From contig JBDRBE010000004.1 in NCBI GenBank assembly GCA_043823085.1, forward strand, positions 342,780 to 406,779: DNA of 64,000 nt, given 5' to 3'. Every line of letters begins with the position of its first letter. Position 1 is the first letter of the stretch. This DNA comes from Candidatus Levyibacteriota bacterium (GTDB taxonomy: Bacteria > Patescibacteriota > Microgenomatia > Levybacterales > UBA12049). Shown here in pieces: positions 1 through 62,213 of the stretch. Position numbers and translations under genes: made by a program. The notes beneath the pieces were generated by a model. That model searched no databases. It saw only the letters and a program-made list of their open reading frames with translations, and was not told where the DNA came from.

Positions 1-151
1 TGAACGATATTAACAACAAGTGATACCAAAAAGAATGAACTCAATGCCAAATGACTAATACTCCCCTCCTCCATCTTAATTTTTCTAAAAATGTAAGTAA
101 AAATGCCAAAAAAAATGGCAAAAATTGCCGAAACAATTAATAAGCCATTTA

Positions 152-373: not shown

Positions 374-534
374 AAAATAGTCCGATAATTATTGCTACAA
401 ATGCCAAATCATAAACTTTGTCCATCGAAATGTTTTTTCTGATAAGTACAAAGTCGTCATGGGCAAAGATGTAAAGACAAATCAAAAAAAGCAAAAAACA
501 GAACGCAAAAAGAAAAAATGAAAATTGCATAAAT

Positions 535-1806
535 TTACCGTCTGGCCATCAACACTCTTAACCCGCTAAAAGCGATTAAACTGATTCCAATTCCTGTCAA
601 AACGCGCCCCACTCCAAAAATGTCAGAAAGTTCTCCAACAATAATAACCGGCAAAAAAGAAGAAATCCCAACCAGAGAATTTAATACTCCATAAATCTTT
701 CCCCTAATTTCATCAGAAGTTTTTTCCTGCAAGAGCGTGTTTGACGGCACAAAAATCAAAGCGTTGGCAAATCCCAAAACAAAAGCCAAAAAAACCATGA
801 TATGAAGGATGTTAATAGTAAAAATATGCGGCAAATAATCATTTATTGTCTGAACAATTTCTCTTGAGGTAACTTTTGATCCATAAGGTAAAAAAAGAAT
901 CGATAATCCTCCGAGCATTACTCCGATATTGGCCATTTTTTCCCTTGAAAAATCATGAAAAAAATTAGCAATAATAATTGCGCCAACTACCATTCCAAGG
1001 GCCGCCGGCGTAACCAAAACTAATGGAAACTCCTCAACGTTAATTCCTAAAACCTGATGAGCAAATCCCGGCCCGACCACGGCAAAAAGTAAAATCAAAA
1101 CTTGCGAAAGAGTCAAAAGAAAAAGAGAATGATAAATCTCTTTAGTTTTTGCGATAAGACTAAAAGAGCTTCTTAATTCTCTGCCAAAATCGAGTTTTAA
1201 ACTCATCGCTTCCTCTTTTACTTTTTTGATTTTAGGAGCTTTAAGAAACGATATCGCAAATGCGGCTATAAAAAAAAGAACGGCAAGCACTATAAAAACG
1301 TTCCTTGAACCAAAAAAAATTAAAAAAGGTCCGGAAAGTGCATAAGCGACTAAAATTGAACCATATATCCCCATGCCAAAAAGCGCATTTGCCGAAAGAA
1401 GAAGTTTTTTTTTCACAACTAAGGGAATCATTGGGGTTTCTGCCGGAATAAAAAATTGCGTCACAATCGACATTGCAAAAGATAAAAGATAAATGAAGAA
1501 AAGATTGGAATGCAAAAAAGCAAGAATTATTAAAAGCATTGCCCGAACAATATTTGTGATAAAAAGAACATTTCTTTTATTCCATCTGTCAACATAAACT
1601 CCCGCCAATATTCCAAAAATGACAGCAGGTAAAGTAAATGAAAGAACAATCCCCGAAACAGCTGTATTTGAATTAGAAATTTTAAAGGCCACGATGATGA
1701 GAATAAAATTCATCATGTTAAAGCCTACTTGAGAAAAGACTTCGGCAATCCAAAGAAGAGAAAATCTTTTATTAAAAAGGGCGCAAAGAAGATGATTGTT
1801 CTTCAT
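535..1806 (-). CDS. MFS family transporter
   Basis: 423 aa, about 12 predicted TM segments. N-terminal MFS-like motifs (GxLaD-RwgrR-like: VYVDRWNKRN). Confidence 0.65.
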   Translation of the reverse strand: MKNNHLLCALFNKRFSLLWIAEVFSQVGFNMMNFILIIVAFKISNSNTAVSGIVLSFTLPAVIFGILAGVYVDRWNKRNVLFITNIVRAMLLIILAFLHSNLFFIYLLSFAMSIVTQFFIPAETPMIPLVVKKKLLLSANALFGMGIYGSILVAYALSGPFLIFFGSRNVFIVLAVLFFIAAFAISFLKAPKIKKVKEEAMSLKLDFGRELRSSFSLIAKTKEIYHSLFLLTLSQVLILLFAVVGPGFAHQVLGINVEEFPLVLVTPAALGMVVGAIIIANFFHDFSREKMANIGVMLGGLSILFLPYGSKVTSREIVQTINDYLPHIFTINILHIMVFLAFVLGFANALIFVPSNTLLQEKTSDEIRGKIYGVLNSLVGISSFLPVIIVGELSDIFGVGRVLTGIGISLIAFSGLRVLMARR

Positions 1807-4179: not shown

Positions 4180-4265
4180 AGGGCAAGTGGCGGAACGGTA
4201 TACGCGTGAGTCTCAAAAACTCATGAGCTGAAAGGTTCATGTGGGTTCGAATCCCTCCTTGCCCA
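4180..4265 (+). tRNA. tRNA-Leu(CAA), type II with a long variable arm
   Basis: Acceptor GGGCAAG/CTTGCCC. D-arm GTGGCGGAACGGTATACGC is like bacterial tRNA-Leu. Anticodon stem TGAGT/ACTCA with loop CTCAAAA gives anticodon CAA. T-loop TTCGAAT. Discriminator A, with no encoded CCA. Confidence 0.8.
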
Positions 4266-4302
4266 CAAAAGAAAGGGTTGAATTTATTCAATATTTTCTA
4301 CA

Positions 4303-5160: not shown

Positions 5161-5289
5161 GGTGACCAAGCTAGTTCACCTTAGAGGTGGTCTAGATAGG
5201 CCACCTCGCTCCTACTCCATCCCCTGCATTATTAAAATTTCTGTTGAAAGCAACAAAAAATATTTCGATTGGCTAAAAGGTCAAATTTC

Positions 5290-5649
5290 TTAAATAATCT
5301 TTTTTCCTGTTTCCAAATCGACAACTTCACTAATTCCAACCAGTATTGCGGATTTTGGGAGAGGCGGGTTGCTTTTGGAAATCGCAAGATTTAAATATTT
5401 CCCCGATGAATAAACTGATGCTGTACCATCAATTCTGAAATAATGCTTGTCCTCATTTGCTACTATTGAAACTTTGTTGTTCTCTTTAATATTTTCCAGG
5501 GTTTTCTTCATCAAACACGCCCCAATTAATATTTTATTATCAATAATGCCAAGGGAAAGTACAGCGATAGCTCGTGACCTTCCGTCTTTTGAACTGGTTG
5601 CCAGAACAATCGCCTGTCTTTCTTTTAGCGCCTTTTTCCAAAAATCCAT
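5290..5649 (-). CDS. pyridoxamine 5'-phosphate oxidase-like (FMN-binding split barrel) protein, putative
   Basis: 119-aa protein with a PNPOx-like N-terminal pattern (LATSSKDGRSRAIAV). Weak assignment. Confidence 0.35.
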   Translation of the reverse strand: MDFWKKALKERQAIVLATSSKDGRSRAIAVLSLGIIDNKILIGACLMKKTLENIKENNKVSIVANEDKHYFRIDGTASVYSSGKYLNLAISKSNPPLPKSAILVGISEVVDLETGKKII

Positions 5650-5880: not shown

Positions 5881-6003
5881 ACCCCCTAACCATTTAGAAT
5901 TTTTGAAGTTGGATATCTTTGACATATTTGATCTTGAATATTTGAATAATTGACATCTTTATATCTAGAATTCAAGAAAATCACACTTCTAATCTCAAGA
6001 ATT
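5881..6003. repeat. partial copy of the palindromic intergenic element family (TCAAGA/GATATC/TCTAGA words, ..AATCACACTTCTAATCTCAAGAATTCTAAT terminus)
   Basis: Shares terminus and word composition with the elements at 42151, 43544, 48677 and 62074. Lacks the CAGCTG core. Confidence 0.45.
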
Positions 6004-7323
6004 CTAATCACTCTCTCTCTTTTTTTCGACACTATAAAATCTTATTCTATCTCCCCTAAAAAGTAAATCGATTTCGCCTGTTGGTCCGTTTCGATGCTTG
6101 GCAATTAAAAGTTTCATCGGCATTGTTTTTCCGTATTCTTCTTCGGTTCTATACAAAAACATCACCACGTCCGCGTCTTGTTCAATAGCTCCACTTTCCC
6201 GAAGATCCGCAAGCTGCGGTTTCCTCTCTCCCCTGTGCTCAACAGCACGCGAAAGTTGGGAAACTGCCAGAACCGGAACTTTAAGTTCTCTTGCCAAATT
6301 TTTTAAAGATTGGGAAACAATTGAAACTTCCTGAACCCGGTTGTCATAACGTCTCCCCGGATCTGCCAACTGTAAATAGTCAACGATAATCAATTTTATT
6401 TTATGCTCTAGCTGAAGTCTTCTTGCTTTAGAACGCATATCCGAAACAGAAAGTCCCGGCGTATCGTCAATAAAAATTGGCGCATCTGCAAGCTGTCCCA
6501 TGGCTTCTGACAAATTGCTAAAATCGCTTTCTGAAAGTTTTCCGGTTTTTAATCTCCAGGAATCAACATCTGCCTGATTAACCAAAAGTCTATCCACAAC
6601 TTCCTCCTTGCTCATTTCAAGGGAAAAAAATCCAACCGGAATTTTCTCATTAACGCCTATAAATTGTGCGATATTTACTGCCAGCGCTGTTTTTCCCTGT
6701 CCGGGACGAGCCGCCAAAATTATCAAATTTGACTCCTGAAGTCCGGAAAGCATATTATCTAAATCCATGAAACCTGTTTTTATACCGCGGAACCCCGCTC
6801 CCTTTTTATGCAGTTCATCAATTCTGTCAAAACTCTCGGCTAAAGCCTCACGAATTGGAATAAACCCTTTTGAAATTTGCCATTGAGAAAGAGAAAAAAT
6901 TGATGACTCGGCTTTATTGAGAATATCTTTTACTTCCTCTTCGCTGAAACCAAGTTCCGAAATTTCGTTGCCTGCCTTTATTAATGACCTTTTTAGAGAT
7001 GCTTCTTTTATAAGAAGAGCGTAGTGTTCAACATTTGCCGCGGTCGGAACTTTATTAATAAGATCGCTGATAAAAGACGCTTCGATTTTTTTGTCCATTT
7101 TTTCTTTTTTGAGTCTTGAGGTTAATGTAAGAATATCGATTGGTTTTTTATCTTCATATAAAGTTAGCATCACATTGTAAATAATGGCGTTTATGTCGTT
7201 ATAAAAATCTTTTGGAGAAATAATTTCGGAAACAATACTTATTGCATCTTTATCAATAAGAATTGCGCCCAAAACGCTTTCTTCTGCCTCGTCATTATGT
7301 GGAAGGATGCGTGAAACTACCAT
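6004..7323 (-). CDS. dnaB: replicative DNA helicase DnaB
   Basis: 439 aa. N-terminal DnaB domain (LPHNDEAEESVLGAIL). Walker A GARPGQGKT. RecA-like C-terminal domain. Confidence 0.9.
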   Translation of the reverse strand: MVVSRILPHNDEAEESVLGAILIDKDAISIVSEIISPKDFYNDINAIIYNVMLTLYEDKKPIDILTLTSRLKKEKMDKKIEASFISDLINKVPTAANVEHYALLIKEASLKRSLIKAGNEISELGFSEEEVKDILNKAESSIFSLSQWQISKGFIPIREALAESFDRIDELHKKGAGFRGIKTGFMDLDNMLSGLQESNLIILAARPGQGKTALAVNIAQFIGVNEKIPVGFFSLEMSKEEVVDRLLVNQADVDSWRLKTGKLSESDFSNLSEAMGQLADAPIFIDDTPGLSVSDMRSKARRLQLEHKIKLIIVDYLQLADPGRRYDNRVQEVSIVSQSLKNLARELKVPVLAVSQLSRAVEHRGERKPQLADLRESGAIEQDADVVMFLYRTEEEYGKTMPMKLLIAKHRNGPTGEIDLLFRGDRIRFYSVEKKRESD

Positions 7324-11148: not shown

Positions 11149-11177
11149 TTGACAAGGAAAGTTTCTGTGGTATAAAC
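11149..11177 (+). promoter_or_regulatory. promoter TTGACA-N16-TGgTATAAA upstream of the RAYT gene. A near-identical copy sits at 11904-11931.
   Basis: ttgacaaggaaagtttctgtggtataaa compared with ttgacaaggaaaacttttgtggtatgat. Confidence 0.45.
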
Positions 11178-11184
11178 AACTATC

Positions 11185-11203
11185 ACACCCCCGAGGTGTA
11201 ACA
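11185..11203. repeat. REP-like hairpin (ACACCCCCGAGGTGTAACA), upstream flank of the RAYT gene
   Basis: Inverted repeat stem with a CCCGAGG loop. Same family as 11881-11902 and 33841-33877. Confidence 0.55.
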
Positions 11204-11212
11204 AGTACCATA

Positions 11213-11878
11213 ATGTGCTATTATTTAATTATGCCTTATCGAACAACTCCACTTGTTAATAACGGTCTTTATCATATATATAACCGTGGCGTGGAAAAAA
11301 GACAAATCTTTATGAAAGACCGAGATTATCAAAGATTTCTCCAAACTCTCTACTATTATCAGTTTAGCGGTCCTAAAGCTCGTTTTTCTACGCATAAGAA
11401 ATTCAAAAATAAAAATTTTGATAAAAATCCTAAAATCGTGGAAATTATCTGTTACTGTTTAATGCCAAACCATTTTCATTTATTACTGAAACAATTAAAG
11501 GATAATGGCATTCAGGAATTTTTGAGTAAAGTAGCAAATAGTTATGCAAAATATTTCAATACTAAGTACAAACGAGTTGGTCCACTTTTACAAGGTCAAT
11601 TCAAAGCGGTAACTGTAGAAACCGATGAACAATTAGTCCATTTATCAAGATACATACACCTAAATCCATTCACAGCTGAAATTACAAAAGATTGGGAGAA
11701 CTTTCCCTACTCTTCCATTCAAGAGTTTATTGAGGATACAACTTCCAAAATTTGCGCCATTGAACAAATTTTAAATTTATTTACAAATCAAGCAGGATAT
11801 AGATCGTTTATTTCCGATAACCAATCATACGCTTTGGAACTTAGTAAAATCCAACATCTTTTAATAGACGAAGAATAA
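11213..11878 (+). mobile_element. REP-associated tyrosine transposase (RAYT; IS200/IS605 TnpA-like Y1 HUH transposase)
   Basis: HUH motif in CYCLMPNHFHLLL. Conserved YHIYNRG, SYAKYFN, RVGPLLQGQFKA and the catalytic Tyr region RYIHLNP. Flanked on both sides by REP hairpins. Confidence 0.75.
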
Positions 11879-11880
11879 TT

Positions 11881-11902
11881 GTTACACTCCCGAGGTGTAA
11901 CA
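11881..11902. repeat. REP-like hairpin GTTACAC-TCCCGAG-GTGTAAC, downstream flank of the RAYT gene
   Basis: Perfect 7-bp stem. Followed by a duplicated TTGACA..TATGAT promoter. Confidence 0.6.
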
Positions 11903-11926: not shown

Positions 11927-12400
11927 ATGATACCTAGCATGCCATTTGCTCCTGTAGAAATAGCAACCATAAACCTTGCTAACGAGCTCCGTGAAGGAGA
12001 TAAATTGCGTGATGCAAAAAAAATAAGAGATGAACATGATAGCGCATGGAAGACTCTTGGCGGAAAATTTGGAATCGCTGTTACCGACGAACAAATGGTT
12101 AATGTATTAAAAGCAACGCTCAACATGTTGCGATTTGGTTTAGAACGAGGACTTGGTAGCCCTCCTTCCGAAAAAACTATCGAAGAATTAGAAAAGGCGC
12201 AGGATCTTAGTACCACAAAAGGAAGACAAGCTGCAAATGCGTTTTTTGAACGATTAGCAGGAATTTATGCATATAAAAAATATCCTCCTCTTGACCCAAT
12301 TGAGAACGAAAGAAAATGCATAGCATGTGAAATCGCAGCAATTTCTTTACGCAAACCTAGAGAATTTGACAAACCGCCTGTTTTAAAGTATACTCCTTAA
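11927..12400 (+). CDS. hypothetical protein
   Basis: The ORF track begins inside the REP/promoter. The likely start is MIPSMPF at 11927, after the duplicated promoter. Confidence 0.4.
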   Translation: MIPSMPFAPVEIATINLANELREGDKLRDAKKIRDEHDSAWKTLGGKFGIAVTDEQMVNVLKATLNMLRFGLERGLGSPPSEKTIEELEKAQDLSTTKGRQAANAFFERLAGIYAYKKYPPLDPIENERKCIACEIAAISLRKPREFDKPPVLKYTP

Positions 12401-12590
12401 TACAATTAAATATAAATGCGCTTGACCGAAGTCACGATTCGGGAGCAGAAGGCCAAAATGCCTTACGGAAAAGTTTCAGCCGTATAAAAAGAAACATTCG
12501 GTGTCGCCAAGTTACAACACTGAGCTTGTCGAAGTGCGGAGCCGGACCAAGAGCCTTAGAGAAAAAAGCTTTAAGGAAATAAGGATGGGA

Positions 12591-12610
12591 CCGCGGGAAG
12601 CGGTTTTTTG
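12591..12610 (+). terminator. intrinsic terminator candidate (CCGCGGGAAGCGG plus T6)
   Basis: GC stem, GGAA loop and a U-tract. Confidence 0.45.
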
Positions 12611-12623
12611 TTGAAAAAAACTA

Positions 12624-12683
12624 CCTCTCGTTCCTTGTTCACTATTTTTGTAGTGGATAACGAACGGGAGGTTTTTTGTTGTT
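12624..12683 (+). terminator. strong intrinsic terminator: long hairpin CCTCTCGTTCC..GGAACGAACGGGAGG plus TTTTTTGTTGTTT
   Basis: About 12-bp near-perfect stem followed by a T-rich tract. Tandem with the previous terminator. Confidence 0.55.
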
Positions 12684-12798
12684 TATTTAACGAACTTTTG
12701 TGAGTTTAGAAAACAACAAACCCTTCCGAAGCGAGCATTCGTTTGCGTGGACGTAGCCCACGAAACGAATTCAAGCGAAGGAGGGTAAATTGAAAAAT

Positions 12799-12919
12799 GG
12801 TGGCTGTAGCTTAAATGGTTAGACCTGCCCGCCATCGGCTTTTGCCGAAGGCATATGCGCAGGCGGGGCATTAGGTCGTGGGCTTAAAAGTTGCGGGTTC
12901 AAATCCCCTCAGCCACCCA
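12799..12919 (+). tRNA. tRNA-like gene with a roughly 45-nt insertion in the anticodon/variable region (candidate intron-containing or aberrant tRNA)
   Basis: Acceptor GTGGCTG/CAGCCAC with discriminator C. Canonical U8 A9. D-arm TAGCTTAAATGGTTAGAC like elongator tRNAs. T-arm GCGGG-TTCAAAT-CCCCT. Total about 120 nt. The helix TGCCC/GGGCA encloses a 35-nt segment containing the CGGCTTTTGCCG hairpin. No clean U33 anticodon loop could be assigned. Confidence 0.4.
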
Positions 12920-12940
12920 AGGGAAAGGAAATAAATAATT

Positions 12941-13195
12941 ATGGAAAGAGAATATAGTCAAAAATATTTACAAATCAACCGGGGTAAAAGCATCATTTTT
13001 GATGCGGAAGAATTACCATTTTTTAGAGTCGCGTCTGATCTTTCCGATCTTGGACGTAATTCTCGTGTGGAAAAAGACTTTCGAGATCGCTATTCGAATA
13101 TTGACTTTGCCTTAGGATGCACTGTCGACGGAGCTGTTCTTATTCAAGACATCCTTCCGGAATATTCTGGAAGGTGGCTTCATCGAAAGAACTAA
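12941..13195 (+). CDS. hypothetical protein
   Basis: 84-aa ORF with an AAGGAAA RBS. Confidence 0.35.
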   Translation: MEREYSQKYLQINRGKSIIFDAEELPFFRVASDLSDLGRNSRVEKDFRDRYSNIDFALGCTVDGAVLIQDILPEYSGRWLHRKN

Positions 13196-13235
13196 TCAAA
13201 GACTAAGAGAATTAAATGATATTTCAAAAATTACT

Positions 13236-13841
13236 TTGCAGGTTGTTGATGGAGCTGTTTTATCTAGAACTTTAATTGATCTTTGCATGAAAGACGAAGA
13301 GCTAAAATCAAAAAAACCTTTGCTTGTTTTTCCTGGAGAAGGAGCAAGAGTAGTTGGCAAATATCTTAAGAAAATGAAGCCTAAACTTACTGCGAATAAT
13401 GAAGTTTTTTTACCAACTCGAAGAACCATGGTTAAATCAGGAGTATTTAATCTTTCCGTTGACTACTCTAGTTTACCAAACACTTTAGATACCAATACTG
13501 TTTTAATTATTGACGACGTAGTCGCAACCGGACAAACAGCAGAAGAGGTTGCCTCAACATTAAAAATGCGTTTTCCGGGAATTCGATGCATTCTTGCCTC
13601 TTGGCTTTTTGTGTGGCCTTCGACAAACGAAAACAAAAAATCCCCCTCGGGCGTTAATGGAATTGATAAAATAATCACCAGTATTATTCTCAAGGGCAAT
13701 TACACTGCTCGCCCACCGATAAACAGCATTTCATGTTTTATGCGAAACGAACAACGATATCGAGATGTTAAAAAAAACTTTACAGATAAATATATTGGCG
13801 ATAAAAATGCGTTCCAAGAGATTATGGAAGAATTGAAATAA
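13236..13841 (+). CDS. phosphoribosyltransferase-domain protein (type I PRTase fold)
   Basis: PRPP-binding motif VLIIDDVVATGQTAEE. Start uncertain (TTG at 13236 or an internal ATG). Confidence 0.5.
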   Translation: MQVVDGAVLSRTLIDLCMKDEELKSKKPLLVFPGEGARVVGKYLKKMKPKLTANNEVFLPTRRTMVKSGVFNLSVDYSSLPNTLDTNTVLIIDDVVATGQTAEEVASTLKMRFPGIRCILASWLFVWPSTNENKKSPSGVNGIDKIITSIILKGNYTARPPINSISCFMRNEQRYRDVKKNFTDKYIGDKNAFQEIMEELK

Positions 13842-13845
13842 GCAT

Positions 13846-14757
13846 ATGAATAAAGATAAAGAAACAGAAAAACTTAAATTATCAGAAATCCTAGGAATAC
13901 CAAAAAAAGGAATTATTTTTTGTGATTTAGATGGGGTATTTTTTGATGAAGAAAATAACTTTGCTTCTCCCAATCCATCAGATTTAGCTATTTTAGATGA
14001 AGCAAAAAACGCCGGTTTTTGGATTGTTTTAAATTCTGATACTGGAGTCTCTGCTCTTGCATCTTTTGGTCAACAACTAGGATGTACTCCGTTAGTTATT
14101 GGAGAAAACGGAGCGGTAATTTATGCACCTAATCAAAGAATAAAAGAATTTTTATCATCAGATAAACAATTCTTTGATCAATACAGAAAAGAAGTTGTGG
14201 AAAATCTTATAGACCCAGAAAATACTATCATTCTTGGAGATGCAACATCATTGATAAAAAATCAGCAAAGACTAGAAATTCCAGGGTCTATGTTATATGT
14301 TGTAAATACAGCAAGAGATTGCAGTTTTGGCGTATATACAAGAAGATTCGATGAAAATGGAATTTTAGTAGTCGATGACAAGAGAACAAAACAAACTGAA
14401 GAATTATTAAAAAATCTTCTTTCAAAAAATGGCAGAGAAAAGGATTTATCTTGCAAAAGATATCCTGTGTTAGGAAGTTGTCTTGTCAAAAATCCAAGGA
14501 TTAAAAAAACATTAGGAGTTAAATATATCATTGGTCAGATGCCAAAAGGTTTATCATATTTTATGATAGGTGATACAATAAATGATGCTATTATGTATGG
14601 ACTTGAAGACAAAGTTCGGACATGCGCTGTTGGTAATGCAACCGAAGAATTAAAAGATATGGTTTCTCAAAACGGTGGGATTATTGCACCAAATCAATTT
14701 GGTTTAGCAAAAGGCGTAACTTTTATAATAGCTAACATTTTGGGAGGAGGAAAATAA
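13846..14757 (+). CDS. HAD superfamily hydrolase (Cof-type phosphatase-like)
   Basis: HAD motif I FCDLDGVFF and motif IV GDTINDAIM. Confidence 0.6.
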   Translation: MNKDKETEKLKLSEILGIPKKGIIFCDLDGVFFDEENNFASPNPSDLAILDEAKNAGFWIVLNSDTGVSALASFGQQLGCTPLVIGENGAVIYAPNQRIKEFLSSDKQFFDQYRKEVVENLIDPENTIILGDATSLIKNQQRLEIPGSMLYVVNTARDCSFGVYTRRFDENGILVVDDKRTKQTEELLKNLLSKNGREKDLSCKRYPVLGSCLVKNPRIKKTLGVKYIIGQMPKGLSYFMIGDTINDAIMYGLEDKVRTCAVGNATEELKDMVSQNGGIIAPNQFGLAKGVTFIIANILGGGK

Positions 14758-15548
14758 TGAGACAACCGCACCTTCTTTGTGATAAAAAAGATATTTCTGA
14801 AATTGTCTTACTTACTGGAGATCCAGGAAGATCTGAATATATTGCAAAAAAATATCTTGAAAAACCAAAACTGATTGCACAAAACAGAGAGTTCACAACT
14901 TATACTGGTTTTTATAAGGGTGTAAAAATAACAACAACGTCAACTGGTATTGGAAGTCCTTCTACGGCAATCGCCGTTGAGGAATTAATAAATATTGGAG
15001 CAAAAATTTTAATAAGAGTTGGAACATGCGGCGGTGCTCTAAAAAAAGAAATAAAAGCTGGTTCAATAATCATTCCAACTGCAGCGATTAGGGAAGAAGG
15101 AACAACAAAAGAGTATTTACCGCCGGAATTTCCAGCAGTTGCTGATTATAAAGTTGTGGAAACACTTATTGAAAGTGCAAAAAAATTAGACTATAGATTC
15201 TTTATTGGAATAAATAGAACACATGATGCATTTTATGGACAATCGCAAAATATTAAAAGATGGGGATCTATTTATTTAAATCCTAGAATGAAAAATTGGG
15301 AATATCCATTAATCAGTTCCGAAATGGAATGTGCTCCTCTCTTTTTGATTGGAACATTACGAGGAGTTAGAACTGGGGCTGTTTTGTCAGTAAATGCAGA
15401 CCCAGAGCCATTAAAAGAAATAATCTTGGGAAGATTTAAATTTGATATTCCGCAAACTAAAATTCAAACTGACGAGGCAGAAAAAAGTATAGACAGAGCG
15501 ATATTGGTTGCAGTTGAAGCTTCATTATTATTAAAGAAAATGCTATGA
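14757..15548 (+). CDS. nucleoside phosphorylase (PNP/UDP family 1, DeoD/MTAP-like)
   Basis: Motifs GDPGR, TSTGIGSPSTAIAVEEL, RVGTCGG and a conserved C-terminal EMECA motif. Start overlaps the upstream stop (ATGA). Confidence 0.7.
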   Translation: MRQPHLLCDKKDISEIVLLTGDPGRSEYIAKKYLEKPKLIAQNREFTTYTGFYKGVKITTTSTGIGSPSTAIAVEELINIGAKILIRVGTCGGALKKEIKAGSIIIPTAAIREEGTTKEYLPPEFPAVADYKVVETLIESAKKLDYRFFIGINRTHDAFYGQSQNIKRWGSIYLNPRMKNWEYPLISSEMECAPLFLIGTLRGVRTGAVLSVNADPEPLKEIILGRFKFDIPQTKIQTDEAEKSIDRAILVAVEASLLLKKML

Positions 15549-16786
15549 TGAAAAATATGATTGAACCAAAAATTTTAAAGGGCTTTCGGGATTTTTTGCC
15601 GAAAGTTGCCAAAAAGAGACAATTTGTTATTAACGCCTTAAAAGAGGTGTTCCAGTTGTATGGCTTTGAGCCGCTTGAAACACCGGCGCTTGAATACGAA
15701 GAAGTTTTGCTTGGAAAATACGGCGAGGAGGGCGACAAACTAATGTATCGCTTTACTGATAATGGGAAAAGAAAAGTTGCTCTTCGCTACGACCAAACCG
15801 TTCCCCTTGCCCGCGTTGTTGCACAATATCAAAGTGAACTTCCGATACCTTTCAAAAGATATCAAATTCAGCCGGTTTGGCGCGCAGAGAACACACAAAA
15901 AGGAAGATTTCGAGAATTTTTGCAGTGCGACATCGACACTGTCGGTTCCTCCTCTTCCCTCTCGGATGCAGAAATAATTTCCTGCACATTAGATTCTTTA
16001 AAAAAACTAGGATTTAAAAAATCACAAATTTGGGTAAACGATAGAACAATTTTTGATACTCTTGGACTGAAAAAAGAGGAAGTTATCATTTTAGATAAAT
16101 TAGATAAAATTGGGAAAGAAGAAGTTATTGCCCAGTGGGAAAAAAATGGAAGAAAAAATGCCAAAGAATTATTCGATAGTCTAAAAAATAGTGAACCGAC
16201 ACAAAAACTTAATGAGATATTTTTGATACTCCAAAAGCAAGGATATAAAAGTGGCGAAGATTTTGTTTTTGTACCTTATTTAGCAAGAGGATTAGATTAT
16301 TATACAAGCATAATTTTTGAATCAAAAATTCTCGATCAAACAAGTATATCTTTGCTATCGCTGGCTGGAGGTGGAAGATATGATAATCTTATTGGAATGT
16401 TCTCTGGTAAAAAGGTGCCGGCTGTAGGTGTTTCTTTTGGTTTTGACAGAATAATTGAGGCAATGGATGAATTAAAACTTTTCCCCGATGATTTGTTAAC
16501 TACTAACATTTTAATAACAGTTTTTTCACCGGATTTATTGGAACAATCTATTAAAATAGTTTCAGAATTACGCTCAGAAAATATCAATACCGAACTCTGG
16601 TTAGATCCGGAAATCAAACTTGATAAACAATTAAAATACGCGGATCAAAAAGAAATCCCTTTTGCAATTATTATCGGCCCGGATGAAGCGGCAAAAAACG
16701 TTATCACTCTCCGCAACATGAAAACCAGGGATCAAAAGGAAATTTCCCAAGAAGAGCTCATAAATGTTTTAGCGAGAAGTCTTTAG
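15545..16786 (+). CDS. hisS: histidyl-tRNA synthetase
   Basis: Class II motifs (FRDFLP, RYDQTVPLAR, REFLQCDID, GGGRYD) and an anticodon-binding C-terminal domain. Confidence 0.9.
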   Translation: MMKNMIEPKILKGFRDFLPKVAKKRQFVINALKEVFQLYGFEPLETPALEYEEVLLGKYGEEGDKLMYRFTDNGKRKVALRYDQTVPLARVVAQYQSELPIPFKRYQIQPVWRAENTQKGRFREFLQCDIDTVGSSSSLSDAEIISCTLDSLKKLGFKKSQIWVNDRTIFDTLGLKKEEVIILDKLDKIGKEEVIAQWEKNGRKNAKELFDSLKNSEPTQKLNEIFLILQKQGYKSGEDFVFVPYLARGLDYYTSIIFESKILDQTSISLLSLAGGGRYDNLIGMFSGKKVPAVGVSFGFDRIIEAMDELKLFPDDLLTTNILITVFSPDLLEQSIKIVSELRSENINTELWLDPEIKLDKQLKYADQKEIPFAIIIGPDEAAKNVITLRNMKTRDQKEISQEELINVLARSL

Positions 16787-23795: not shown

Positions 23796-23955
23796 ATCCT
23801 TTTGGATTTCTTGACGTTGGATATTCTTGATATTCTTGACCTTGACGTTTTTGACTTTTTGATATCTTGAAATCAAGAATTCAATTCTTCAATTCGTCAG
23901 CTGACGAATCAAGATCAAAAATATCGCACTTCCAACTTCTAGATATCTAATTTCA
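23796..23955. repeat. palindromic intergenic element (TTCGTCAGCTGACGAA core flanked by TTGAAGTCTTGATATCTTGA words)
   Basis: Family copy between rpsF and ssb. Confidence 0.6.
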
Positions 23956-33840: not shown

Positions 33841-33877
33841 TTGTTACACCTCTTGTTACACCTCGGGGGTGTAACAA
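33841..33877. repeat. REP-like hairpin TTGTTACACC-TCGGGGG-GTGTAACAA, with a partial extra half-copy
   Basis: Inverted orientation relative to the copies flanking the RAYT gene. Intergenic, between the fabZ-like gene and cysS. Confidence 0.6.
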
Positions 33878-42150: not shown

Positions 42151-42295
42151 ATTGGAATTCTTGAAGTCAGATTTCCTTGACGTTTTTGATCTTGATTCGT
42201 CAGCTGACGAATTGAAGTCTTGAAGTCTTGATATCTAGAAATCAAATTATCAAGAAATCAAGTTCAAGAAAATCCCACTTCTATCTTCAATGATT
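42151..42295. repeat. palindromic intergenic element (CAGCTG core, TCAAGAAAATCCCACTTCT terminus)
   Basis: Between recR and prs. Confidence 0.6.
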
Positions 42296-43255
42296 CTATT
42301 TTTTTATTTCTTCGGCGATAATATCAGCGACTGTTAGAATTTGCAGTTTGGGAAATCTTTTTTCTCTTGGACAATAAACCGTATCTGTCACAAAAAATTT
42401 CTTCACTGCCGATTTTTGCAAAATTTTTGGCGCACTCTTTGAAAATACTGAATGCGTCACAAAAACATAAACTTCCTTTATCCCCAATTTTCGGAGAAGT
42501 TTTGTCGCGGTAATTATTGTTCCTCCAGATGAAATCATATCATCAACAATAAACGCCCTTTTAATTTGCTTTAAACTGATATTTTCCAAACCCTCAATTT
42601 TATCTGCTGTCACTTGTCCGGTTTCCAAATTTCTGCTTTTGACAATCGCGCCAAAAAACATATCATTTAACATTTGCGAAAGCAATTTTATCCGTCTTAA
42701 TCCTCCCATATCCGGTGAAATCAAAAGGCTCTGCGAATTATTCCATTTATTTTTTTTAATTGTTTTGGCAAAAAGAGAAAGCGCAGAAAGATGAATAATC
42801 GGCATATGAAAAAGCTCGGGAATTTTAATAGAGTGGAGGTCAAAACAGATAAGTTTATCCATCCCCATCGCTTCTAAAGTTTTGATAATAACTTCCAAAG
42901 ACACCGCCTCGCCTGTTCTAAAAAGATGATCCTGCCTTTGATAACCAAGATACGGAATAACAGCGGTAATTGATTTTGCGCCGCTTCTTCTTAGAGCATC
43001 GACAATAAAAAAAAGCTCCATGTAATTTTGGTCAACAGGCGTACAGCAACTTTGCAAAACAACGCATTTTTGGTCTAAAACTTTGTCAATAATTCGAACG
43101 CGTTTTTCGCCGTCCGGGAAGATATATATTTCCAGAGGTGTTGGACTTGTGCTTAATTTACCTGCGAGTTTTTTTCCAAGTGTCTTACTGGAACTACCGC
43201 TTATAATCTTCACAACAGTTATTGTACTATGTGTCGAAAAAAAATCAATAAGCAA
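42296..43255 (-). CDS. prs: ribose-phosphate pyrophosphokinase
   Basis: PRPP synthetase motifs (DLHS, VDDMISSGGTI). Confidence 0.9.
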   Translation of the reverse strand: MLIDFFSTHSTITVVKIISGSSSKTLGKKLAGKLSTSPTPLEIYIFPDGEKRVRIIDKVLDQKCVVLQSCCTPVDQNYMELFFIVDALRRSGAKSITAVIPYLGYQRQDHLFRTGEAVSLEVIIKTLEAMGMDKLICFDLHSIKIPELFHMPIIHLSALSLFAKTIKKNKWNNSQSLLISPDMGGLRRIKLLSQMLNDMFFGAIVKSRNLETGQVTADKIEGLENISLKQIKRAFIVDDMISSGGTIITATKLLRKLGIKEVYVFVTHSVFSKSAPKILQKSAVKKFFVTDTVYCPREKRFPKLQILTVADIIAEEIKK

Positions 43256-43543: not shown

Positions 43544-43704
43544 CCCCTACTGTTTAGATTTCTTGACGTGAGATATTTTTGATATTCTTGATCTTGATTC
43601 GTCAGCTGACGAATTGAAGTCTTGAAATCTTGATATCTTGAGTTCAAGAAATCAAAAATTCAAGTTCAAGAAAATCCCACTTCTCACTTCAAAAATTCTA
43701 ATTA
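43544..43704. repeat. palindromic intergenic element, the fullest copy (TTGACGTGAGATA ... TTCGTCAGCTGACGAA ... GTTCAAGAAAATCCCACTTCTCACTTCAA)
   Basis: Between ybaB and dnaX. Confidence 0.6.
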
Positions 43705-45249
43705 CTATTTCTGTTTTAGTGAAATTGAAACGTCGATTGGGCTTCCTATAATTTGTTTACAAACCTTTTCTATAATATCACGAGTTTTTCTTTCTTCCAA
43801 GCGCTCTTTATGAAACTTATATCCGGCTTCTATGGCAAGATTTTTCCCGTCAAAACTTTTTAAAGTACATCCTCTTAGAACTCCTGCCACCGAATGATTG
43901 TAGGGCTTGACCAAATCAATAAGCTGTTTTAGGACATTTTTTTCGTCAAATATTCCGGGTTGATTAATCGCAGGATTCGATAACACTTCTTCTTTCTCCA
44001 CCTTTTTGTCGCGGAAAGACGCAGAACCGGACGCCAAACTACGCTGACTTTGAACATCTTGGTTTTGATTATTAGTTTCGCGTTTTTCTGCATTTTGTTC
44101 CGCATTCTTCTGCGCCTGTATTCCCCACTCCACAATTGCAATTTCAAGCGGCAATTGCGGCAGGACCGCATATTTTATTTCTCCATACGCCTTTGCCAAA
44201 ATTTCAATCAAAGACTTAATTTCATTAAGTTCTAAATTATAAGTTACAAGTCCTAAGTTATTTTCTACACCGACTTTTGATAATAAATTTAAATGCAGTT
44301 GGGAAATCATTTCTGATATAAAATATTTAACATCTATCCCCTCTTTTGTAATTCTTGATACCAATTCTAAGCTTTTTTTAGTGTCTTTTTTAGAAAGATA
44401 GTCCAACATCTTTGATACTTGATACTTGATACTTGATACTTGATATTTCTCCTCCACCAATTCTTTGGTAATCTTTTTTTTATTGGACATTAAAACAAGT
44501 TCTTCTAAGATTTTTACACCGTCGCGAAAACTGCCGTCGGACAATGAGGCAATATATTTTAGTTCTTCTTTTTCTATTGGAATATTTTCCTCTTTGGCAA
44601 TCCGCGAGAATGAACGCAGAAGTTCTTCTTGGGTCGCTCTCTTAAAAGAAATATGAAAACAACGCGAAAGGATAGTCGCCGGAACTTTTTGCGGTTCCGT
44701 GGTACAAAGAATAAAAACAGCATGACTCGGCGGCTCTTCTAAAGTTTTTAAAAGCGCATTAAAAGCTTCTGTGGTCAACATGTGAACTTCATCAATAATG
44801 TAAACTTTTTTAGAAGCCAGAGCAGGCGAAAGCCGTATTTTCTCACGCAAATCTCTTATCTCATCAATCCCTCTATTTGATGCTCCGTCTATTTCCAAAA
44901 CATCTAAATTTGTGCCATTAGTAATAGATTTACATTGCAAGCATTTATTACAAGGCTCAATACTAGCATCTAGCGTATACCTGCCTGCCGGCAAGGCAGG
45001 GCGTTTAGCGTTTAGTTTTTTTTCTTTTGAACTAGACACTAATTTATTAGACGCTAGACGCTCGCAATTGAGGATTTTTGCGACAATTCTGGCGGTTGAA
45101 GTTTTTCCAAGTCCTTTAGGTCCGGTAAAAAGAAAAGCGTGTTGTTCTGATTTTTGATCGCCGGAAAAAACAGCGGTTAATTTTTCTCTAATTTCTTGAC
45201 TATCAAGATCTTTAATTTTTTGCGGCCGATATTTTCGATAATAAACCAT
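43705..45249 (-). CDS. dnaX: DNA polymerase III subunit gamma/tau, carrying two in-frame repeat insertions
   Basis: AAA+ Walker A GPKGLGKTS and sensor motifs. (CTTGATA)x5 at 44410-44447 encodes SIKYQVSSIKYQVS. An ACGCTA-word block at 45001-45070 lies inside the Zn module, between NCE and EPCNKCLQC. Confidence 0.85.
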   Translation of the reverse strand: MVYYRKYRPQKIKDLDSQEIREKLTAVFSGDQKSEQHAFLFTGPKGLGKTSTARIVAKILNCERLASNKLVSSSKEKKLNAKRPALPAGRYTLDASIEPCNKCLQCKSITNGTNLDVLEIDGASNRGIDEIRDLREKIRLSPALASKKVYIIDEVHMLTTEAFNALLKTLEEPPSHAVFILCTTEPQKVPATILSRCFHISFKRATQEELLRSFSRIAKEENIPIEKEELKYIASLSDGSFRDGVKILEELVLMSNKKKITKELVEEKYQVSSIKYQVSKMLDYLSKKDTKKSLELVSRITKEGIDVKYFISEMISQLHLNLLSKVGVENNLGLVTYNLELNEIKSLIEILAKAYGEIKYAVLPQLPLEIAIVEWGIQAQKNAEQNAEKRETNNQNQDVQSQRSLASGSASFRDKKVEKEEVLSNPAINQPGIFDEKNVLKQLIDLVKPYNHSVAGVLRGCTLKSFDGKNLAIEAGYKFHKERLEERKTRDIIEKVCKQIIGSPIDVSISLKQK

Positions 45250-48676: not shown

Positions 48677-48897
48677 ATACTGTAAGTATACAAAAAATTC
48701 AAACTCTTGACAAACTTTTAAAAATGTTACAATATATTATTATACCGAATTTTTGAGGTGGGAAGTGGGATTTTCTTGAACTTGATTTCTTGATAATTTG
48801 ATTTCTAGATATCAAGATTTCAAGACTTCAATTCGTCAGCTGACGAATCAAGATCGAAGACGTCAAGGATATCTAACTTCAAGAATTCCAAATAATT
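48677..48897. repeat. palindromic intergenic element plus overlapping divergent promoters
   Basis: GGTGGGAAGTGGGATTTTCTTGAACTTGA ... TTCGTCAGCTGACGAA. TTGACA on the plus strand at 48706. On the minus strand, TTGTCA-N17-TATACT-N6-ATG serves the DHH gene. Confidence 0.55.
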
Positions 48898-62073: not shown

Positions 62074-62213
62074 GGGCTAGTTTTTAGAATCTTTGATGTG
62101 AGAAGTGGGATTTTCTTGAACTTGACCGTTTTGATATCTAGATATCTAGAATTCAAGAAATCGAAGATTCAAGATCAAAAATGTCAAAAATATCTCACGT
62201 CAAAAATTCTAGT
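62074..62213. repeat. palindromic intergenic element, a copy lacking the CAGCTG core
   Basis: Termini TAGAATCTTTGATGTGAGAAGTGGGATTTTCTTGAACTTGA and ATATCTCACGTCAAAAATTCTAG. Aligns with the reverse complement of the 43544 copy. Confidence 0.55.

Follow-up and report, generated by a model that had tools for sequence, protein, structure and literature searches.

We analysed a 64,000-nucleotide (nt) stretch, hereafter the window, of a metagenome-assembled genome (MAG) of Candidatus Levyibacteriota, a member of the candidate phyla radiation (CPR), around a tRNA-like segment at 12799-12919 of its plus strand. The segment lies in the leader of an operon that includes the histidyl-tRNA synthetase gene (HisRS, hisS), behind a predicted T-box riboswitch with a histidine (His) specifier codon. 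It is a real, aberrant tRNA-His-derived gene, whose match to tRNA-His is far beyond chance. The features of the locus, in 5' to 3' order, are as follows.

12366-12394, plus strand: sigma-70-like promoter, TTGACA-17-TATACT, with 11/12 consensus matches
12410-12677, plus strand: predicted His-specific T-box leader of the short-Stem-I type, with K-turn region, specifier hairpin, Stem II-like hairpin, antiterminator and terminator
12426-12442, plus strand: specifier hairpin CCGAA-GUCACGA-UUCGG, a reduced Stem I with the His codon CAC (12433-12435) in its 7-nt terminal loop
12581-12635, plus strand: T-box antiterminator with helices A1 (AGGA/UCCU) and A2 (GCGGG/CUCGU), from the Rfam alignment and reading by hand
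12624-12677, plus strand: T-box terminator, hairpin 12624-12671 and U-run 12672-12677
12676-12719, plus strand: module M, GUUGUUU..UUAACGA-[hairpin]-GAGUUUAGA..AAACAAC, conserved in related leaders
12720-12786, plus strand: hairpin H, CCCUUCCGAAGC...GCGAAGGAGGG, a predicted fold that pairs away a Shine-Dalgarno-like GGAGGG
12799-12919, plus strand: tRNA-His-derived gene, G-1 at 12799 and C73 at 12917, from an ARAGORN deletion scan and the Rfam and R1 models (below)
12822-12865, plus strand: 44-nt insert in the 3' half of the D-loop, from comparison with loci L010 and L050 and the covariance alignments
12871-12887, plus strand: anticodon arm UUAGG-UCGUGGG-CUUAA, with GUG at 12878-12880 and C33 at 12877, from the deletion scan and both covariance models
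12941-16786, plus strand: regulated operon, beginning with a split phosphoribosyltransferase (PRTase; 12941-13195 and 13236-13841) and a HAD hydrolase (13846-14757)
14757-15548 and 15545-16786, plus strand: distal genes of the operon, a nucleoside phosphorylase (PNP) and HisRS (hisS)

The tRNA-like segment proper spans 12799-12917 and is followed by CA at 12918-12919; a full CCA is not encoded. Its layout is G-GUGGCUG-UA-GCUU-AAAUGGUUA-[44 nt]-GGGC-A-UUAGG-UCGUGGG-CUUAA, continuing as AAGUU-GCGGG-UUCAAAU-CCCCU-CAGCCAC-C-CA. The acceptor helix GUGGCUG/CAGCCAC (12800-12806 / 12910-12916) is lengthened by G12799:C12917 to 8 bp, with 8/8 positions paired, and is followed by U8 A9 (12807-12808). 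The D-loop, AAAUGGUUA, keeps its GG (G18G19), and the D-stem is weak, GCUU facing GGGC with two G.U pairs. A 5-nt variable loop separates the anticodon arm from the T-arm GCGGG-UUCAAAU-CCCCU (12893-12909), whose loop is intact and whose stem has one C:C mismatch (12894:12908, C50:C64), and the discriminator is C (12917). The original prediction, made from the sequence alone, had described an aberrant tRNA-like gene about 45 nt too long, and both the sequence and the covariance models bear this out; the acceptor helix, U8-A9, D-loop GG, T-arm, discriminator C, UGCCC/GGGCA helix (12826-12830 / 12866-12870) and CGGC-UUUU-GCCG hairpin (12836-12847) that it listed are all present. It did not mention the G12799:C12917 pair, the regular anticodon arm or the His T-box/hisS context, and it is this context, the T-box(His) leader and hisS operon, that best explains the element. 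A minus-strand open reading frame (ORF) at 12683-12871 (62 aa), which overlaps the tRNA-like gene and hairpin H, was treated as spurious.

Standard annotation passes over the element. Default ARAGORN makes no call there, its sole tRNA in the 64-kb window being tRNA-Leu at 4181-4266, and the same tRNA-Leu is the only call of Rfam at the gathering threshold. The check by tRNA callers and covariance models that had been proposed for the segment thus came out negative at default settings, but relaxed Rfam and R1 models do call it. With 12790-12930 (141 nt) searched alone, and only then, the Rfam tRNA model (RF00005) aligns end to end with 12800-12917 at 26.9 bits (E 5e-4), short of the gathering score of 29; no other copy that was scored came out lower on this model. 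R1, a covariance model for tRNA-His derived from 25 independent genes, all T-box-linked and all from other organisms, reaches 57.3 bits (E 1.5e-12) over all 73 positions, the lowest value of the individually examined T-box-linked copies except for the remnant in L080 described below. All four cloverleaf arms can be aligned in the two models, despite the T-stem mismatch and the two D-stem G.U pairs. A tmRNA search gave no match, and neither ARAGORN nor R1 found a second tRNA-His within the window.

An 8-bp acceptor stem with G-1:C73 is the hallmark of bacterial tRNA-His, and the element has both this pair and a GUG anticodon. When every interior segment of 20-61 nt was removed in turn and the remainder called again, ARAGORN returned tRNA-His(GTG) in 117 of 272 calls, the next most frequent identity appearing 21 times and Met(CAT), the anticodon floated in the original prediction, 6 times. 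The element derives from tRNA-His, not from tRNA-Met. It is extremely improbable that the segment is a tRNA-Met (CAT), elongator or initiator, with an insert in the anticodon region, or similarly a tRNA-Arg(GCG) that has a long variable arm and is interrupted by a 25-nt intron. ARAGORN with introns allowed (-i) does call tRNA-Arg(gcg) with an intron at 31/32, a call that we rejected as being at odds with Arg tRNAs, which have no long variable arm, and with both covariance alignments, in which 12871-12887 is the anticodon arm. The Met reading has the six CAT calls on its side; the G-1:C73 pair and the His-specific setting, with its CAC specifier and hisS in the operon, argue against either identity.

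The earlier statement that no standard 7-nt loop with U33 can be drawn unless an insert is removed is not confirmed: the anticodon arm itself is regular, with a 5-bp stem and a 7-nt loop. Its one departure is at position 33, where a U is nearly universal in elongator tRNAs: the element has C (12877), whereas U33 is present in 29/29 tabulated T-box-linked relatives.

The leader that precedes the element is best compared with the T-boxes that have a short Stem I and a Stem II, a class reviewed in PMC7583486, citing Sherwood et al. (2015). It resembles these in its K-turn region, specifier codon, 7-nt bulge and competing antiterminator and terminator, and differs in presenting CAC in a 7-nt terminal loop and in that the transcript begins with a tRNA-His(-like) gene, that is, with a gene of its own ligand type. 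The Rfam T-box model (RF00230) gives 12410-12677 22 bits (E 0.0096), below the gathering score of 93. With its short Stem I the leader lacks about 70 positions of the model; L010, with the same core and a long Stem I, scores 70 bits. The window leader aligns column by column throughout with 44 related leaders. Read by hand, the antiterminator is AGGA[UGGGACC]GCGGG...CUCGUUCCU. T-box bulges pair with the NCCA end of tRNA (PMC7583486), and in the 7-nt bulge at 12586-12592 UGGG is complementary to a CCCA 3' end (C73-C-C-A), with a discriminator C as in tRNA-His. The segment 12627-12635 can pair either with 12582-12597, in the antiterminator, or inside the terminator hairpin, and the two are mutually exclusive. 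The CAC specifier agrees with the genes downstream, hisS in the window and hisG, hisS or hisI in relatives. The tRNA-like element has the same orientation and starts about 120 nt 3' of the terminator, in the portion of the leader that is reached by read-through, and a 23-nt purine-rich spacer separates it from the AUG.

Neither the leader nor its tRNA is peculiar to this genome. A metagenome scan with the T-box core as query (AAGGATGGGACCGCGGG N10-40 CGTTCC) recovered at least 120 loci, for the most part in groundwater or other samples rich in CPR bacteria. Among them GUCACGA is an invariant loop, and the 5-bp stem that closes it stays fully paired while varying in sequence (at least 14 distinct versions); the loop with such a stem occurs in more than 50 of about 107 related leaders. 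The first genes downstream are mostly hisG, hisS and hisI, with a few other families. On comparative grounds this establishes the leaders as a large family of predicted His-specific T-boxes in CPR bacteria, because the CAC loop is invariant, the leaders align and his genes follow them. In 35 of 116 distinct leaders, ARAGORN calls a co-oriented tRNA-His(GTG) that begins 88-311 nt beyond the T-box core, in many cases right behind the terminator U-run; it called tRNAs of no other type at this position among the 116. Once R1 adds the degenerate copies, the order T-box(His), tRNA-His, ORF is found in about 40 of these 116 related CPR loci, which include the following.

T-box(His) terminator, then tRNA-His, then ORF: L007, L010, L018, L023, L027, L029, L039, L044, L050, L052
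same order: L056, L059, L064, L066, L067, L069, L071, L075, L077, L078
same order: L091, L093, L099, L109, L114, L117, L120, L122, L125, and others

On the Rfam model the normal T-box-linked tRNA-His genes of these relatives reach 62-77 bits, and R1 gives them 74-91 bits. In the searchable literature we came across no account of a T-box with a cognate tRNA gene behind it, and the main interest of the window element lies in the architecture to which it belongs. At 12 loci the start codon comes 2-3 nt past the discriminator, the junction reading C[ACU]U-AUG or CC-AUG and lacking a Shine-Dalgarno sequence; in L018, L078 and L122 hisG properly begins at this AUG. Such tight junctions suggest that tRNA 3' processing may generate near-leaderless mRNAs.

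Several T-box-linked copies depart from the normal tRNA. In L080 (9286-9348, minus strand) a tRNA-His remnant, consisting of the 5' two-thirds with no T-arm, lies between the T-box and hisG, which shows that, as far as can be told from sequence, a T-box-linked copy can be lost as a functional tRNA. L003 (5091-5243, minus strand) has a tRNA-His scaffold, otherwise perfectly paired, whose anticodon loop contains another, complete tRNA-His(GTG); the nested pair follows a T-box and precedes hisG-hisD-hisC, in a MAG labelled Gammaproteobacteria whose locus is CPR-like in look. In L084 a 34-nt hairpin insert stands immediately 5' of the anticodon. L008, L041, L114 and L122 have no G18G19 in the D-loop and a T-loop AGCRUUA instead of UUCRAnY, scoring 39-46 bits on the Rfam tRNA model, and probably represent a conserved elbow-less variant of the T-box-linked tRNA-His. 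G-1 and GUG are kept in all degenerate copies except the outer scaffold of L003, where the inserted tRNA replaces the anticodon loop, and C73 is kept in those that retain a complete 3' strand. Apparent degeneration at this position of the leader is common, and the window copy, with its C33, T-stem mismatch and insert, is the most degenerate of those that have all four arms. It can be regarded as a natural degenerate variant, in which the acceptor with its G-1:C73 pair, the T-loop and GUG stand out as the features conserved at this position.

The same facts raise the question of whether the window copy is a decaying, functionless pseudogene, a former T-box-linked tRNA-His that took up an insertion and point mutations after a second copy had taken over. 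It carries several independent defects (insert, C33, T-stem mismatch, weak D-stem), is a singleton without conserved relatives, falls under the Rfam gathering threshold, and has a clear remnant at the same position in L080 as a precedent. The acceptor pairs, T-loop and D-loop are however identical, or nearly so, to those of L010 and L050, the damage being confined to the D, anticodon and T stems, and random decay would not spare 8/8 acceptor pairs and GUG. We therefore consider this explanation unlikely.

The extra nucleotides of the window copy can be located by comparison. Its closest normal relatives, L010 and L050, match it nearly base for base in acceptor, D-loop and T-loop and read GCUUAAAUGGUUAAAGC-A at the compared D-arm region; aligned to them, the insert sits between A21 and the D-stem 3' strand GGGC. 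The original prediction had placed the extra bases between the D-arm and the variable region, and here both covariance models disagree with it: the Rfam alignment puts a 47-nt insertion in the D-loop, and R1 also opens its insertion there. Compared with canonical bacterial tRNA-His (E. coli; L010, L050), the element shares the genome-encoded G-1:C73, U8 A9, G18G19, GUG, the 5-nt variable loop and the UUCAAAU T-loop, and differs by its 44-nt D-loop hairpin, C33, C50:C64 and D-stem pairs weakened to G.U, as well as in falling under the Rfam gathering score and going uncalled by ARAGORN.

We found no further copy of the insert in the window, in the 125 loci other than L001 (a contig of the same organism) or in the viral contigs searched, and rejected on these grounds an origin from a mobile repeat of the repetitive extragenic palindrome (REP) or miniature inverted-repeat transposable element (MITE) kind. 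Its predicted pairing with the T-box leader or the downstream ribosome-binding region (-40.4 kcal/mol) was no better than that of shuffled inserts (-36.8 +/- 3.3 kcal/mol). When tRNA-His genes carrying 20-50 additional nt were sought genome-wide by pattern, four matches emerged, of which L002 and L004 are assembly duplications and L003 and L005 are different phenomena. L005 (about 447-1300, minus strand), in a Polyangiaceae MAG, is a tandem array of four tRNA-like genes, each about 125 nt long and with a His-type acceptor of 8 bp. They have in common a conserved GC-rich hairpin of about 45-50 nt, inserted 3' of the D-arm, and differ in their 'anticodon' loops; the insert of L005 has the octamer UGCCCGCC in common with that of the window and is otherwise not alignable.

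The original prediction had proposed a candidate intron-containing or otherwise aberrant tRNA. As an intron, the 44-48 nt would be removed by self-splicing, by a bulge-helix-bulge (BHB) and endonuclease mechanism or in some other way to leave a normal tRNA-His. Group I introns measure about 200 nt or more (P3-P9 core) and normally lie in the anticodon loop; the insert is far shorter, lies in the D-loop, and the locus has no Intron_gpI match in Rfam at E<=10. A relaxed BHB scan produced 14 weak candidates, none convincing, and the single one that would restore tRNA-His has a UGGU/AUUA core with two G.U pairs and flanking helices of which 2 of 3 bp form. We know of no archaeal splicing endonuclease in bacteria. 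The C33 and the T-stem mismatch would moreover persist after removal. Splicing gains some ground from the fact that removal of 40-50 nt restores the ARAGORN tRNA-His call, from the L084 insert, which stands beside the anticodon and would need to be removed for decoding, and from the unusual richness of Patescibacteria in tRNA introns (PMC13011429). The introns described there come from the same phylum and likewise let a tRNA gene escape standard annotation through an insertion, but they are group I introns in the anticodon loop (PMC13011429), unlike the 44-nt D-loop insert of this tRNA-His, which has no group I features. Archaeal non-canonical BHB introns, which occur also at D-arm positions, offer a parallel in short insertions (tens of nt) at non-anticodon tRNA positions (PMC3241643); they need a BHB motif and the archaeal splicing endonuclease, whereas the window has no convincing BHB and a bacterial host. 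No known intron type fits the insert, and the intron explanation is very unlikely.

The insert could also be a permanent part of a working molecule. By analogy with the class II variable arm, the element might be a fully functional and possibly sole tRNA-His with an extra arm projecting from the 20a/20b region of its D-loop. Folded in isolation, the insert gives a stacked hairpin (CCUGC/GCAGG, GCC/GGC, CGGC-UUUU-GCCG; -21.6 kcal/mol), in a part of the D-loop whose length is naturally variable, and acceptor, G-1:C73, G18G19, T-loop and GUG loop are intact. CPR genomes usually have one gene per tRNA species, no other tRNA-His lies in the window, and the T-box-linked copies of relatives look normal by both models. 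The predicted folding of the whole is less favourable to it: the cloverleaf with the insert hairpin (-41.2 kcal/mol) lies 11 kcal/mol above the unconstrained minimum (-52.3 kcal/mol), and in the ensemble the D and anticodon stems have probabilities near 0 while UGCCC/GGGCA, much stronger than the two-G.U D-stem with which it competes, has about 0.8. C33, where all 29 relatives have U, and the C:C mismatch in the T-stem point the same way, the leader position tolerates dead copies in relatives such as L080, and a T-box terminator would silence a sole tRNA-His gene lying behind it at the very moment when the whole tRNA-His pool is charged. We hold a fully functional tRNA-His to be rather unlikely.

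We favour, with a probability of about one half, the interpretation that the element is a co-transcribed tRNA-His-like processing and regulatory module in the leader of a T-box(His) operon, which probably no longer decodes. Such a module is preferred over an efficient decoder because the acceptor, T-loop and GUG are kept while U33, T-stem and D-stem are damaged. RNase P, RNase Z, the CCA-adding enzyme and HisRS read an 8-bp acceptor with G-1:C73, a UUCAAAU T-arm and G18G19, and the element retains these features together with the GUG anticodon loop. The element would be transcribed only once uncharged tRNA-His has stabilised the antiterminator. RNase P would then cut 5' of G12799 and RNase Z 3' of C12917, where the absence of an encoded CCA is the usual context for RNase Z. 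This excision would part the structured T-box leader from the mRNA, leaving in many relatives an almost leaderless message, and the released tRNA-His-like RNA could itself bind T-box(His) leaders. In the window copy, constraints would have been relaxed or altered and decoding would probably be poor, and the insert would stay in the RNA without being spliced out.

Several points weigh against this interpretation. We infer processing, aminoacylation and T-box binding of the element from sequence, and its intact GUG, D-loop GG and T-loop also fit a working tRNA; if the genome has no second tRNA-His, the element must decode. The insert is known from one organism only, L001 being the same organism, so that it offers no covariation and no test of selection. 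A search of 12680-12798 found no promoter-like site on the plus strand with a consensus of the E. coli type, which could miss a CPR promoter. L126, the closest relative of the operon at the protein level (PRTase 78% identical), has neither T-box nor tRNA-like element, and the arrangement is therefore not fixed in the lineage.

A more specific role can be imagined, in which the element is a dedicated regulatory mimic of tRNA-His, released by RNases P and Z, whose charging state reports the supply of histidine and which acts as a positive-feedback amplifier of the His regulon. The reporting function would follow because the determinants for HisRS (G-1:C73) and for the T-box (GUG loop, CCA end) are kept, and the amplification because synthesis depends on read-through. 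C33 would be the Watson-Crick partner of the G just 3' of the CAC specifier, and the predicted loop-loop duplex UCGUG/CACGA has -6.3 kcal/mol with C33 against -3.7 to -5.9 kcal/mol for the loops of relatives; C33 would strengthen specifier-loop pairing and fit a regulatory role, although this is a single observation and could be due to chance. A precedent for a regulatory tRNA that binds a T-box without dedicated ribosomal decoding is provided by the non-proteinogenic tRNA-Gly isoacceptors of S. aureus, reported as ligands of the glyS T-box (PMC4574755). These are separate genes, not co-transcribed with the T-box and with no large insert, unlike the window element. A dedicated mimic seems doubtful to us.

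The layout of the favoured module recalls tRNA punctuation and tRNA-mRNA co-transcripts, known from mitochondrial polycistrons and from the E. coli tRNA-tufB operon. As in those, a tRNA fold stands between two functional RNA segments, and predicted RNase P and Z sites would define the 5' end of the mRNA; here the upstream segment is a riboswitch rather than a gene, processing is predicted, and 23 nt precede the AUG. More broadly, CPR bacteria may possess cassettes of T-box, tRNA-His and (leaderless) mRNA in which a riboswitch is coupled to the gene of its own ligand and to processing by tRNA punctuation. If this is true, the recurrent architecture, a T-box that controls a gene of its own ligand type along with his/hisS genes, would imply feedback in amino-acid sensing. 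Bacteria would also be able, through tRNA processing, to rid an mRNA of its long riboswitch leader, as the tRNA-NNN-AUG junctions in relatives suggest, a route to leaderless mRNA that is, to our knowledge, otherwise associated mainly with mitochondria. And a type of tRNA gene with a D-loop hairpin insertion would have been overlooked by standard annotation, which bears on reports of missing tRNAs in CPR genomes.

Other parts of the leader also recur. Module M, in the form GUU..UUAACGA-[variable hairpin]-GAGUUUA..AAC, is found in L110 (about 480-530) and twice in L114 (about 965-1015 and 2365-2415), directly after attenuator terminators; one of the L114 copies follows an attenuator of the leader-peptide type and not a T-box. 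It has no match in Rfam. A short version of hairpin H (L084, about 110-150, minus strand) lies within the anticodon loop of the T-box-linked tRNA-His-like gene of L084; it is the 34-nt hairpin insert, whose ends (CCCUUCCGAAGC...GCGAAGGAGGG) match those of hairpin H.

The operon's first gene is a PRTase of about 290 aa in relatives; here it is broken into two ORFs, of 84 aa and about 200 aa, that lie in different frames. L126 shows this split as well (680-934 and 951-1589); its presence in a 78% identical relative points to a conserved two-piece gene or a programmed frameshift and not to a sequencing error. The 84-aa fragment is an orphan, and synteny via the downstream proteins was uninformative. 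The tRNA-like element is absent from the relatives with PRTase homologues, L126-L131. In L127 (about 5270-5390) and L128 (about 455-600), short His-rich leader ORFs (..LNHHF.. and ..IHHHTSF..) with terminator-like hairpins replace the T-box; the operon that runs from the PRTase to hisS appears to be His-regulated by different attenuation devices in relatives.

Two groups of repeats complete the picture of the window. A Y1 transposase gene (IS200-like, 11213-11878) is flanked by hairpin repeats of about 29 nt (..UGUUACACCUCGGGGGUGUAACA..) at 11175-11203 and 11874-11902, with a third copy of the UGUUACACCUCGGGGGUGUAACA repeat at 33848-33876; these repeats have no relation to the tRNA insert. A family of AT-rich repeats, each about 150 nt long and with TTGATATCTTGA..TCAAGAAATC motifs, occurs in both orientations at six or more sites of the window:

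5893-6012: AT-rich repeat
23801-23925: AT-rich repeat
42151-42301: AT-rich repeat
43553-43707: AT-rich repeat
48747-48892: AT-rich repeat
62078-62211: AT-rich repeat

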